Source of the DNA: a phage
Sequence record: PZ445450.1
Length of the DNA stretch: 64,000 bases
Strand: one strand, 5' to 3'
A model generated the notes under the pieces. The model saw only the letters and a program-made list of their open reading frames with translations, searched no databases and was not told the DNA's origin. The first letter of the stretch is position 1; the number at the start of each line of letters is the position of its first letter. This document shows, one piece after another, positions 55,445 to 61,058 of the stretch. The translations under genes and the position numbers were made by a program.

Positions 55445-55636
55445 ATGACAGCAGAAGAAGTTAAAAAAGTACTGGCAGTACTACGTTACCATAATCATTG
55501 CAAGGTGAAGAATGATCCTGATTATCTCGATTCATCCCTTGAAGAGGATACACTGCAAGCCATAAGCAACATGCAAGAATTGCTTAAGCGTATGACAGAG
55601 AAAAACCGACCGGACTATATAGGCGAAAAAATATAA
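55445..55636 (+). CDS. Small early protein
   Basis: 63-aa ORF. Confidence 0.45.
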   Translation: MTAEEVKKVLAVLRYHNHCKVKNDPDYLDSSLEEDTLQAISNMQELLKRMTEKNRPDYIGEKI

Positions 55637-55650
55637 TCTTTATAAACCAT

Positions 55651-55684
55651 AAAACAGGGCTTGTAATGGTCCTGTTTTTTGTTA
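55651..55684 (+). terminator. Rho-independent terminator
   Basis: Stem AAAACAGG/CCTGTTTT with wobble-extended inner pairs, T-run TTTTTTGTT. Confidence 0.65.
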
Positions 55685-55693
55685 TACTTATTT

Positions 55694-55745
55694 CACGGCA
55701 GGCACCTGGCGACGGGGGGAGACAATCACCGGGGGTGCCTGTCAT
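55694..55745 (-). repeat. GC-rich element, copy 3 (inverted)
   Basis: GGCAGGCACC..GACGGGGGGAGACAATCACCGGGGGTGCCTGTC is the near reverse complement of copy 2. Confidence 0.55.
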
Positions 55746-55765: not shown

Positions 55766-55794
55766 TTGACACCTGCCAGGCGGTGGGGTAACAT
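55766..55794 (+). promoter_or_regulatory. Sigma70-like promoter
   Basis: TTGACA-N17-TAACAT. Confidence 0.45.
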
Positions 55795-55848
55795 TTATCT
55801 TGAAGGGGCAAAAGTGCTCACACAACAACCAGAAGAGAGGAAAACGCC

Positions 55849-56121
55849 ATGTTAAGCTGGATTAACCAAGAAGTCGAATCACGTTTTAATACTATTTAGG
55901 ATCTCATCGAAAAAGAGGACGGAACATCAAGCCCTTATCTCAATAATCTTGAATTCCATTTCGTGGAAGCGATGAACGCAGAACATGATCACGAAGGTGG
56001 TGCGGACGAGTTCGCTAAAGGGTATGGCTTCAACAATGCCAACGAAATGATCGAGGCGGTTGTACTCCAGGCTGAGGAAGATTATCAATTAAAAACGCTT
56101 GAATTCTGCCGCCGTAAGTAA
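55849..56121 (+). other. Early ORF interrupted by an in-frame TAG at 55897-55899 (codon 17 of 90)
   Basis: ATG 55849 after AGAAGAGAGGAAAA; frame open on both sides of a single amber codon to TAA 56119-56121; alternative downstream start ATG 55975. Confidence 0.4.
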
Positions 56122-56183: not shown

Positions 56184-56402
56184 ATGGCAACCCGTAAAAT
56201 TAAAGTTGTTTGCATTGAATCAACTGGTAGCGCTTTTGTAGTTGGTCAGAAATATAATGCGGTTTTAATGGGTACGGATTGGAAGGTTAAAGGCCTTGAT
56301 GGTTACGAATACGGCACTACTCGGGGATTGCGTGGTCGAATCGGATACGTGAGTTTTGACAACAAAGAAAAATTTGTTTTCGATATTGTTGTGAGTAAAT
56401 AG
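56184..56402 (+). CDS. Small early protein
   Basis: 72-aa ORF with AAAGAGAGAAAG RBS. Confidence 0.45.
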   Translation: MATRKIKVVCIESTGSAFVVGQKYNAVLMGTDWKVKGLDGYEYGTTRGLRGRIGYVSFDNKEKFVFDIVVSK

Positions 56403-56458: not shown

Positions 56459-56722
56459 ATGAAACGTCTTGACCAGCTCAAACTAGTTCAGTACATGGCT
56501 TACAGAATTCTTGAAGTCCAAAAAGGTAGCAAAAAAGAAGTTTGCGAGAAAGCGTACAAGATCTTTACTCGCAAAAAAGACGATTGGATGTTACGCCAGA
56601 CCAAAAAAGCCGATATCTTGGGGTACCTGGAAGAAGAGATCCGGCTTGAAGAACAAGAAGAGATCCGCCGTAGTGAGGCAGATTATCAGGCAGCTTGGGA
56701 AAACTGGATGAGCAACAAATAA
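56459..56722 (+). CDS. Small early protein
   Basis: 87-aa charged ORF with AAAGAGGAAAA RBS. Confidence 0.45.
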   Translation: MKRLDQLKLVQYMAYRILEVQKGSKKEVCEKAYKIFTRKKDDWMLRQTKKADILGYLEEEIRLEEQEEIRRSEADYQAAWENWMSNK

Positions 56723-57286: not shown

Positions 57287-57304
57287 TTTCTTAACTGAAT
57301 TATC

Positions 57305-57334
57305 AAGGGGCTTAAAGGCCCCTTTCTTTTTGTC
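57305..57334 (+). terminator. Rho-independent terminator closing the early cluster
   Basis: Stem AAGGGGC/GCCCCTT then TCTTTTTGTC. Confidence 0.75.
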
Positions 57335-58046
57335 TGCTCTTCTCCTACCATAAACGGCCCTACCTGGCAAGTGGAATAATTGACTAGCCATCAATCCCAC
57401 ATACTGTACAAATATACATGGAAAATAACTATTGCATAATCTTTCATTGTGCGGTAGCAGGGCCATTTTTACCCGTTTTCTCTCCCAAAAGTGCACGTAA
57501 TGCCGCTATTGCACAAATTTTAACCTGATGCACATATCCAATATCTTGTCAACAACTAAAAATCTTTATAAGTCATACACTTATACAGCATCGAAAGCGT
57601 GTTCTACGTGAAAAATCGAGTATAACTATAGCCGCCAGATCTCAGAATTCACGTACGCACGCCATTCTATAGCCTGCAAAGTATTTATTCCAACCACAGA
57701 ATAACGGAATAGTCAATACCTGCATAAAATAATTATTCGTGTAAACTGCATAACATAAATCAGCTCAGGTGTCAACATTTTTCGTAAACAGTCCGAAATT
57801 ATCACGATGAGTTATCATAAACAGAGAAATCTTTAGTCGTCTAATGTTTACTGTACATTACTATACTGACTGGAATCATTAGATGACTAAGAAAAAGATA
57901 AGAAATAATTAATAATGTAATTGTTTTATCTGTAACAATAAGGCAACCATGCAAACGAATGTCATGGCGCGACGGAGTCGCGACATAATATAAAAGCAGT
58001 AACCATCACCCCCGTGATAGTTTGTCTGCAATCTATTATTCAGATC

Positions 58047-58118
58047 ATAGTTGCCTTGTATTTAGTTAATCATGACATAACAAGCAAGGCAACTATAGCT
58101 CTGATAATAGTTGCCCTG
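58047..58118. repeat. 12-bp inverted repeat pair plus a direct copy
   Basis: ATAGTTGCCTTG (58047) / CAAGGCAACTAT (58085) with 26-bp spacer; direct variant ATAGTTGCCCTG at 58107. Confidence 0.6.
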
Positions 58119-58247
58119 CTTTTATATTATGTCATAGATTGTTAGCTTGTTAACTGTCAGCCTGTTGGCTGTTAGCTTGTCAATTATTAAATTGCTAATC
58201 TTTATCATGCAAACGAATGTCATGGCTTATCATCTCTGTGTAAACAG

Positions 58248-58302
58248 TTTGGGCGTAAACTATTCAGGCGTAAACAGTCTATGCGTAAACAGTGAGATAT
58301 GG
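58248..58302 (+). repeat. Four tandem 15-bp repeats (iteron-like)
   Basis: Units start 58248, 58263, 58278, 58293, each G(T/C)GTAAAC(A/T)..; dispersed GTAAACAG copies also near 57783, 58587, 59347. Confidence 0.65.
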
Positions 58303-59837
58303 AATAGTAACAGCCGTTATTGTGTCATATTGTGTGACATTGTGTCCGGTGTCTGGTGTCCAGTGTGTCAGACAAGTTTTTCTCCTCTTTGTCAAGTGCT
58401 GCATGAAAAATTTACAAACTGGTATGGTAGCATTTTTGCGGCCCTGTTTACATTCAGTTGTGTATGTATAACCCTTGTTGTGTGGGCGTTTAGACGTCTA
58501 GACGGTTGGAAGTCTGCAGGTCAATATCTAATCTATCGGCTGCTAACTATATCCCACACAAATAGTAAGAAATATAATTGTTATGTGCGTAAACAGTAAC
58601 TCATGTTATCAATCCCTGTATGTATCGCCAGTGGTGCGCATAATGGGTATTATGTTAAATTGCCCGTAATGATAATGGTTCTCACAATGATAGGTATTCT
58701 CATTCATCCACACAAAATAGGTTGCAAATGTTGTGCCACTGTGTGAACGGCCTGGCCTATTAATTTCCCTCACTGCCTCGATATTTGAGAATTGTTATAA
58801 GAATGAGAAGTATTCCCATTTCGTCCGCCTGGCAGCACTCCTGTAGTCCTACAAGGACTCTAGCTGAAAGCTAGACCCTTCGGGCCTCCCTGCAGGTCAG
58901 GTCAAAATCGTGGTAGAATTGGGCTTATTCAGATATTTCTGGCCGACTCTTCAGGTCTGTGTGGGAAAAGCCAACCTCTCCGGCGGGGCAGGGGGAGGTC
59001 AATTAAAAAATTTACGTGGTGTATGAAGCGCTCTTCAGGTAAGGCAGGTATTATGGGATGAAACCCTCTTCAGGCAATGATATTTGTGGGTGTGATATTT
59101 GCTGGAAAGCCAGATATGACGGGACTCCCGGCGGGGATGGGGCAGTACAGACAGGGAAAATATGGGGATGTAGTTGGGTAAATTGATCAGACAGGTAGAG
59201 TATGGAATATGTTACAAGTATGTTAAATATGGAGGGTGAATATCTGTAGGATTTGTGTGTAAAATCAAAGACTTAAGCGGTGTTGTGGTATTTTCTATAA
59301 ATAATTCAAGTTTAATAGGTAATATTTGTCTCTATCCACTCTGTGTGGTAAACAGATTCAGATGATATTGGTTTGCAAGTGTATACATAATATACAAATT
59401 AAAGATACAAGAAACCCCCCTCCCCCTTCGGCTACCATTCACCTTTTCCTCTGACTGGTACTTAAACACTTATTCAGACTCTTCAGGTTATCACCCATAT
59501 ATCATATGGCAGTGACTGGTGTCCTCCGGCCCCTCTTTCGTCACCCGTCCGCTTCGCCATGCTAATGCCATAGCCAAATGTTCGGTTGTTCACCCTGTTC
59601 ACTCAGGTGTATCTCCATACCCCTTCAAACCGAAGAGAACAGAAAACCCGAATTACTCGGTAAAAGAAAAGAGAAGAACTTAATTTTATCATGATAGGCA
59701 AGAATGTCAAGGCATGACTGCTCACTAAACAAGCAAACAGTCATGTGTGGAAGGTAAGTGATTGTGGTGGTAGGAAATTTAGTTGAAAGATGTGTTATAG
59801 GTGCTCCCAGCACTTTAGCCGGGTAGCTAATTGTGTG

Positions 59838-60386: not shown

Positions 60387-60689
60387 GTTCCACCCGTGAG
60401 TATTCCGGCAACAGCCGCTATGGAAGTAATGATCATCAGGATCACCACTAAAACTTCAGACAATGTTCTCATTGTGTATTCCATATTCTCCAAACTGTGT
60501 GTGGATACTATCACGGGAGCGGTAATGTGTCAACAGCAACGCCGCGAGGGTTTGGTTAAAATCCGAGCGTATGGTGATTTGGGTCAAAACGGACGTGCGT
60601 TCTCGCTACGCTCGAAAGAGAGGTTTGTTTATAGACCGTCCTTAAACGCTCTGTAACGAGATTATCTGTCCAAGGTATGCAATCGTGCA

Positions 60690-60722: not shown

Positions 60723-60752
60723 AGGTGTCTTAAATTTGATATTTTGCTATAC

Positions 60753-61058
60753 CTATGAGGGCTTATCAAGGTTGGAGTAGCTGAAAGGTGTCAAAAGGTG
60801 ATTGTCAAAATCTCTCAAACTGTCCAGATCTTTTTCCTCGTCCTGACACCATCTGTGCCTACATTTATTGTTGTAGTGCATAGAATGCATAGCGTTCTGC
60901 AACTTAACAGGCACAAGTGATTCAGGAGTGGATAGTATTGTTGGGTATGCCAGAACCACCTCAAATAGTGGGAACACATCGAAACTAAAGTCTACCTCTG
61001 CAGAGGTTGATGGCATGTAGGAGTATTTAGCCGCCTTTGTAGACATAATCCACCTCAC
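60753..61058 (-). CDS. Hypothetical protein
   Basis: 101-aa ORF. Confidence 0.45.
   Translation of the reverse strand: MRWIMSTKAAKYSYMPSTSAEVDFSFDVFPLFEVVLAYPTILSTPESLVPVKLQNAMHSMHYNNKCRHRWCQDEEKDLDSLRDFDNHLLTPFSYSNLDKPS

Follow-up and report, generated by a model that had tools for sequence, protein, structure and literature searches.

The amber codon that interrupts a 90-codon early gene in the phage DNA analysed here (sequence record PZ445450.1; the whole stretch of 64,000 nucleotides is referred to as the window) is best read, at a probability of roughly 0.7, as a genuine and recent loss-of-function (null) allele of a dispensable accessory gene, so that the locus would be in effect a young pseudogene. 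The account that we propose starts from a small early accessory gene with its own sigma-70 promoter, encoding a predicted four-helix bundle of 90 aa, in which a single G-to-A transition at 55898 would have turned the invariant Trp17 codon TGG into the amber codon TAG. In an ordinary non-suppressing host, read with the standard genetic code and with TAG serving as a terminator elsewhere in the window, translation would halt at codon 17 after 16 residues, and no full-length or functional product would be expected. Because the gene appears dispensable for lytic growth, such a null allele would be tolerated, and because about 220 nt of message would become untranslated, the downstream genes (56184-56402 and 56459-56722) may experience some Rho-dependent polarity. 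The account presumes a correct base call at 55898. None of the candidate readings weighed below would be a new kind of biology.

The interrupted frame and its family

The first-pass annotation had described a promoter, a ribosome-binding site and an ATG at 55849, followed by a frame that stays open for 90 codons except for one TAG at codon 17, and this description holds: sequence and translation give a plus-strand frame from ATG 55849 to TAA 56119-56121, directly followed by a second TAA, with 90 sense positions and the TAG as the sole internal stop, and ahead of it stand a sigma-70-type promoter and a GAGAGG Shine-Dalgarno sequence (Table 1). The downstream in-frame ATG that it reported exists as well, but at 55972-55974 (codon 42) and not at 55975, and the base that it named as a candidate error does lie inside the TAG, although the one that differs from relatives is the middle base, 55898, and not 55897.

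Table 1. Features of the interrupted locus (window coordinates) and of other broken alleles of the same gene.
Feature	Position	Strand	Remarks
Intrinsic-terminator-like hairpin and T-run ending the upstream gene (55445-55636)	55651..55678	+	11-bp stem, then T-run
Sigma-70-type early promoter, TTGACA-17 nt-TAACAT	55766..55794	+	10/12 consensus matches
Shine-Dalgarno sequence GAGAGG	55835..55840	+	8 nt 5' of the ATG; kept in relatives
Interrupted CDS	55849..56121	+	Ortholog of rV5 ORF167, ECP32_00155, bas54_0131, phrog_7287; 90 codons, internal amber
Predicted product in a non-suppressing host, 16-residue peptide, then stop	55849..55899	+	MLSWINQEVESRFNTI (translation)
Amber codon TAG, codon 17	55897..55899	+	Ancestral codon TGG (Trp17); derived base A at 55898
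Possible restart ORF, 52 aa (GTG 55963, codon 39) or 49 aa (ATG 55972, codon 42)	55963..56121	+	
Broken allele L009 (ENA ERZ28658859 scaffold_58838)			TGA at the same codon 17, and GTG start
Broken allele L008 (SRR26367876)			13-nt deletion between AATCA direct repeats
Broken allele L007 (SRR30977706)			First ~26 codons gone via ~1.7-kb upstream deletion

By its sequence, the window is a fragment of a Vequintavirus (rV5-like) E. coli myovirus. In megablast searches the locus is 99.4% identical over 1.1 kb to phage vB_EcoM-ECP32 (ECP32) and about 89-92% identical to rV5, the BASEL phages and many others. For the last 24 kb of the window, the best-ranked records among the matches listed are ~94% identical, and no record of the phage collection matches this part at 99% or more. 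The neighbourhood is that of Vequintavirus relatives, with homologs of ORF169 and ORF166/165/164 flanking the gene and the same promoter, P168. The rV5 annotation of P168 (L002, 1867-1895) aligns with the promoter in Table 1, which is nearly invariant across four aligned phages, and the terminator-like hairpin further upstream is present in the minimum-free-energy fold of the 5' region.

The frame at 55849-56121 is not a chance open frame, since it matches phrog_7287 over its full length and since annotators have placed a CDS of 273 nt there in relatives. With Trp17 restored, residues 2-86 of the protein align with positions 2-86 of the 86 in phrog_7287 (E = 3.2e-46), a match that takes in the residues ahead of the stop, and the annotated CDS occupies exactly this position in ECP32 (ECP32_00155), rV5 (ORF167) and EmilHeitz (bas49_0132); protein accessions of orthologs are ABI79232.1 (rV5 ORF167), QDB73780.1 (ECP32_00155) and QXV82651.1 (bas54_0131). 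The window copy shares position, promoter, Shine-Dalgarno sequence, start, length and stop codon with rV5 ORF167, ECP32_00155, bas54_0131 and phrog_7287, and its protein is 96-100% identical to theirs when Trp17 is restored; unlike the window copy with its TAG, all other copies of the ORF167 family examined in this comparison are intact at codon 17. The window copy is a disrupted allele of the phrog_7287 / rV5 ORF167 family and not an intact member: an uninterrupted frame of about 90 codons is a trait of the family, and the TAG at codon 17 breaks it.

The family was found in 147 phage records covering at least 80% of the query, ~114 of which are Vequintaviruses at 95% identity or more, while U136B and other phages of ~49 kb, UPEC06, and phages of Citrobacter, Salmonella, Vibrio and Pseudomonas carry more distant members; IMG/VR contigs of about 53 kb contain the family as well. 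On two IMG/VR contigs (L025, 497-1402, and L015, 495-1399) the homolog lies just 3' of a tandem row of four small paralogous ORFs, each about 71-79 aa long and with the common motif Y..D..G..W, which suggests a locally amplified small-gene family. Neither Pfam nor NCBIfam gave a match above curated cut-offs for the protein, the PDB fold search gave none with E < 1 for the family protein, and PHROG gives no function for phrog_7287. As the gene has an early sigma-70 promoter and sits in a long array of small early genes, its product is most plausibly a host-interaction accessory protein, a reading drawn from position.

A derived and private change at an invariant codon

A DNA alignment places TGG at codon 17 in ECP32, rV5 and EmilHeitz. 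When the 61-mer centred on the TAG was looked up, none of the 85 phage records with this segment matched it exactly, the two best having one mismatch; with G restored, the same 61-mer is found in ECP26 and ECP32 at 100%, and all 85 records reach at least 95% identity. Since each record seems to gain one matching base in the restored 61-mer, this indicates that all 85 GenBank phage records carry G at 55898. The picture extends to environmental sequences: all 21 IMG/VR loci, with protein identities as low as 59%, share both the start ATG and the TGG of codon 17, and the two metagenome contigs both have the TGG. Across 13 protein clusters Trp17 does not vary; it lies within the conserved motif RFNAIWDLIEKEDG. 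The TAG allele was found in no other assembly among IMG/VR, metagenome contigs and GTDB genomes, the last being a collection in which the motif has no copy at all.

On these comparisons, the TAG is a derived G-to-A transition at 55898, private to the window, at an invariant Trp17 codon. Besides the TAG, the gene differs from that of its closest relative, ECP32, by one synonymous change only, and for this reason the event appears to be recent. A nonsense allele that is derived with respect to all close relatives and accompanied by no further decay is what we find, and the recent nonsense mutation that the first-pass annotation listed among its options is the one that gains support, with the relatives all having TGG.

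Real mutation or base-call error

The reading that competes at this point takes the A at 55898 for an error of sequencing or assembly, the phage itself having TGG and an intact gene. It draws on the uniqueness of the A against the 85 phage records, the 21 IMG/VR loci and the 2 metagenome contigs, and on the place that it affects, an invariant residue in a gene that purifying selection strongly constrains. Such selection across the family shows the gene to be of importance in nature, so that a null allele would be expected not to persist for long, an expectation that fits a recent event and a sequencing error equally.

The overall character of the assembly argues against error. Over the ~23 kb for which at least four relatives give coverage, 212 substitutions are private to the window, and those in coding sequence comprise 97 synonymous, 46 missense and 2 nonsense changes, with 92 of the 145 (63%) at codon position 3. 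This pattern looks like real divergence under selection and not like random error; because private substitutions are mostly synonymous, the assembly would mainly record real variation. In the substitution spectrum against ECP32, transitions are balanced, there is no G-to-A excess, and a signature of mutagenesis or damage was not seen.

A second private TGG-to-TAG change lies 5 kb from 55898 on the minus strand (codon 60753-60755, base 60754, in the ORF 61046..60750). In the 99-residue homolog of rV5 ORF160 it falls on residue 98, so that two C-terminal residues are lost, and it is unique among the 103 phage records with this segment. Both 55898 and 60754 are the first G of a T-GGG run, and this common context could hint at a systematic, context-specific miscall; it is the only such hint, and with two changes sharing it the cases are too few to weigh. 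Since, in addition, the gene is dispensable and natural broken alleles of it exist (see below), a real nonsense allele is plausible, and we regard sequencing error as unlikely, and as less likely than the ordinary nonsense allele.

Dispensability and other broken alleles

In transposon-insertion sequencing of Bas54 (the Vequintavirus phage MaxBurger, MZ501093) with E. coli K-12 as the host, insertions in bas54_0131 were recovered at 11 of 12 TA sites, and the gene was classed as 'Non-essential' (bioRxiv 10.1101/2025.11.20.689424, Extended Data Table 8). The bas54_0131 protein is 98% identical to the restored window protein, and a gene of the ORF167 family, shown to be dispensable for lytic growth in the Bas54 ortholog, would by analogy be dispensable in the present phage too.

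The alleles L009, L008 and L007 (Table 1), from metagenome assemblies, are real and independent disruptions of this gene on different backgrounds. They resemble the window allele in that the N-terminal part is lost with the C-terminal 49 codons unchanged, L009 even being hit at the very same codon, and they differ from the window TAG in the lesion itself, which is a TGA with a GTG start, a 13-nt deletion and an upstream deletion, respectively; all three were ascertained by looking for truncated gene products. The 52-aa cluster P0014 was also considered as an amber allele and was rejected, as the ENA scaffold is broken there by a run of N and the codon is TGG.

It could be argued from these alleles that loss of the full-length protein is selected, for example as an escape from a host defence system that senses the protein, given four independent N-terminal disruptions (the window TAG, the L009 TGA, the L008 frameshift and the L007 5' deletion). 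However, the disruptions were sought among truncated gene calls, which introduces an ascertainment bias, more than 100 phage genomes have the gene intact, and searches of PHROG, Pfam, NCBIfam and PDB folds link the protein to no defence system. The repeated hit at one codon carries little weight as well: calculated from the codons, 5 transitions could create a stop ahead of Met42 and 2 of them fall on Trp17, so that a repeat event there has a chance of about 0.4 and repeated loss of this codon is unremarkable. We therefore see only a very slim chance that the loss is selected, and give hardly more credence to the broader statement that the amber is one of several selected N-terminal knockouts or that the 49-aa C-terminal module works alone.

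The appropriate annotation for the locus is a pseudogene, a disrupted member of the rV5 ORF167 / phrog_7287 family, and neither a 52-aa gene nor a case of recoding. Apart from annotation its significance is slight, though the natural null, the Bas54 transposon data and the broken alleles from metagenomes together mark a widespread small early protein as dispensable, which is useful for picking genes for deletion or cargo replacement in Vequintavirus engineering.

Coding status of the N-terminal part and the possibility of restart

The first-pass annotation had also considered a short leader peptide with re-initiation at the downstream ATG, and had named, as a finding that would refute its observation, orthologs in relatives that start there with unrelated sequence upstream. 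The opposite was found, as orthologs begin at the ATG that corresponds to 55849 and conserve the coding sequence that follows it. Between the window gene and the homolog L013, codons 1-41 show 9 synonymous and 3 non-synonymous differences (dN/dS 0.06), and against L015 the synonymous sites are saturated (20/23) with only 10 of 97 non-synonymous sites differing; codons 1-41 are under purifying selection as strong as that on codons 42-90. The AlphaFold2 model of P0001, a homolog with 94% identity, is a compact four-helix bundle (mean pLDDT 86.8, pTM 0.74) with helices at residues 7-24, 29-47, 51-58 and 64-89, and Trp17 lies in the middle of helix 1. Because codons 1-41 are constrained and because helix 1 is present in the model, the 16-codon 'leader' is the beginning of the protein and not a separate unit. 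In relatives there is no separate conserved upstream ORF, the 16 codons being fused in frame and evolving as coding sequence, and a leader peptide with re-initiation is not the native design, since the 41 N-terminal codons of orthologs are in frame and under purifying selection.

There is still the reading that in the window allele itself ribosomes restart at GTG 55963 or ATG 55972, so that the locus would consist of a leader peptide and a shorter gene for a functional C-terminal fragment of 49-52 aa. In-frame start codons are indeed present, and the residues that vary least are in the C-terminal half. In the homolog P0015 the same 40 C-terminal residues are preceded by an N-terminus that is unrelated, a hint that they form a separable module, and several broken alleles retain a C-terminal 49 aa that is 100% identical; for such alleles in public assemblies, the 49/52-aa restart fragment is what gene callers report. 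Against this, the two starts lie 63 and 72 nt 3' of the TAG, hence not near the stop, and the only purine-rich motif in the vicinity, GGAAG, ends 2 nt 5' of ATG 55972, which is too close for a well-spaced Shine-Dalgarno sequence. By the P0001 model, the restart product would be without helix 1 and without the greater part of helix 2 of a compact four-helix bundle, and the family-wide constraint on codons 1-41 equals that on codons 42-90. Since the alleles were retrieved by an exact-match look-up, which itself picks out identical C-termini, this identity is uninformative on function. Restart with a functional fragment is, in our estimation, very unlikely, although low-level initiation at GTG 55963 or ATG 55972 may occur.

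Recoding and suppression

Readthrough or suppression of the stop, likewise put forward in the first-pass annotation, finds no support in the sequence context: TAG is a normal terminator in the window, it is absent from orthologs at this codon, and neither the window nor the tRNA clusters of rV5 and ECP32 hold a suppressor tRNA. Of the 101 genes in the window with homology support, 10 end with TAG, and the gene directly downstream (at 56400) is one of them. When the 186 annotated CDSs of ECP32 and rV5 were compared with the window, the TAG at 55897 was the only stop falling mid-body in a well-supported gene; the scan was based on annotated CDSs only, as a scan of all stop-to-stop segments is noisy and antisense frames produce spurious matches. 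The remaining in-frame stops are minor, namely the TAG at 60755, which is the only other in-frame TAG in a supported gene, a TGA at codon 8 of an annotation present in rV5 only, and those in very small doubtful ORFs. That TGA, at 60458 on the minus strand, interrupts the homolog of rV5 ORF162 (101 aa), which is unannotated in ECP32; this ORF may in truth begin further downstream, or may be a doubtful one. Genome-wide recoding of TAG was rejected, with TAG being a normal terminator and no other gene broken mid-way, and the window uses the standard genetic code.

As had been reported before, no tRNA gene is present in the 64-kb window, which ARAGORN corroborates; the tRNA cluster of rV5-like phages maps to a part of the genome beyond the window. 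The clusters of rV5 and ECP32 have seven tRNA-like genes, with the anticodons tgg, cat, tgt, tga, gta and tct plus a 99-nt gene, and a CUA anticodon was found neither in these clusters nor in the window. The 99-nt tRNA-like gene is conserved (rV5 L011, 12221-12319; ECP32 L036, 21211-21309) and lacks annotation in rV5. ARAGORN calls a 4-base anticodon (atcc) for it, and the Rfam tRNA model scores it at 35.5 bits, with the anticodon loop UUUUUAA and a 26-nt insertion in the variable region. Rfam detected no structured element in the region of the amber codon, the RNA fold of the 5' region is unremarkable (z = -1.8), and a search of the literature on amber codons in rV5-like phages found nothing relevant.

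Could the TAG nevertheless be decoded, by a host (supE/supF) or phage suppressor tRNA or by natural readthrough, to give the 90-aa protein? The two nonsense changes private to the window both produced amber codons, the TAG is followed by a purine (G), which in classical work is a suppression-favouring context, the phage tRNA cluster maps outside the window, and some relatives have been propagated on DH5alpha. On the other side, two ambers out of two would arise by chance with a probability of about 0.25, no tRNA gene lies in the window, CUA is absent from the tRNA-like genes of rV5 and ECP32, TAG ends about 10% of genes with the neighbour among them, and the region holds no Rfam element. An in-frame stop that serves for readthrough would be conserved in orthologs, and here 0 orthologs carry TAG, all having TGG; similarly, recoding would entail avoidance of TAG as a terminator together with many in-frame TAGs, and the 10 in 101 gene ends speak to the contrary. 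We consider decoding of this TAG highly improbable. On a supE/supF laboratory host, partial restoration of the full-length protein would nonetheless be expected, with Gln or Tyr at position 17.

Classical amber mutants of phages such as T4 and lambda, when the gene is essential, grow normally on suppressor hosts only. The window allele resembles these classical mutants in being a single-base UAG inside a CDS, reached by TGG to TAG, a typical transition route; it differs from them in that the gene is non-essential, no suppressor host is needed and the substitution spectrum looks natural, with nothing that points to deliberate mutagenesis. In some gut phages TAG is reassigned throughout the genome (genetic code 15), with phage-encoded suppressor tRNAs. 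With such phages the window has in common an in-frame TAG inside a conserved gene, whereas it contains one mid-gene TAG only, ends about 10% of its genes with TAG, has TGG in the orthologs and lacks a suppressor tRNA, as do the tRNA clusters of its relatives.

Flanking sequence

Between the upstream terminator and the promoter, the window holds a long GC-rich hairpin at 55697-55744 (GGCAGGCACC...GGTGCCTGTC). This stretch is annotated in BASEL phages as the 29-aa ORF bas54_0130, which was classed as 'Intermediate' in the Bas54 transposon data, with 4 of 8 TA sites hit (bioRxiv 10.1101/2025.11.20.689424). In rV5, an ORF168 is annotated over ORF167 in another frame (window 55814-55972); its frame is broken by a stop at 55853 in the window, it is without annotation in ECP32 and the BASEL phages, and it is probably not a real gene. 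Further downstream, the early genes on the plus strand are separated from the genes on the minus strand by ~2.5 kb of gene-poor sequence (about 57287-59800).
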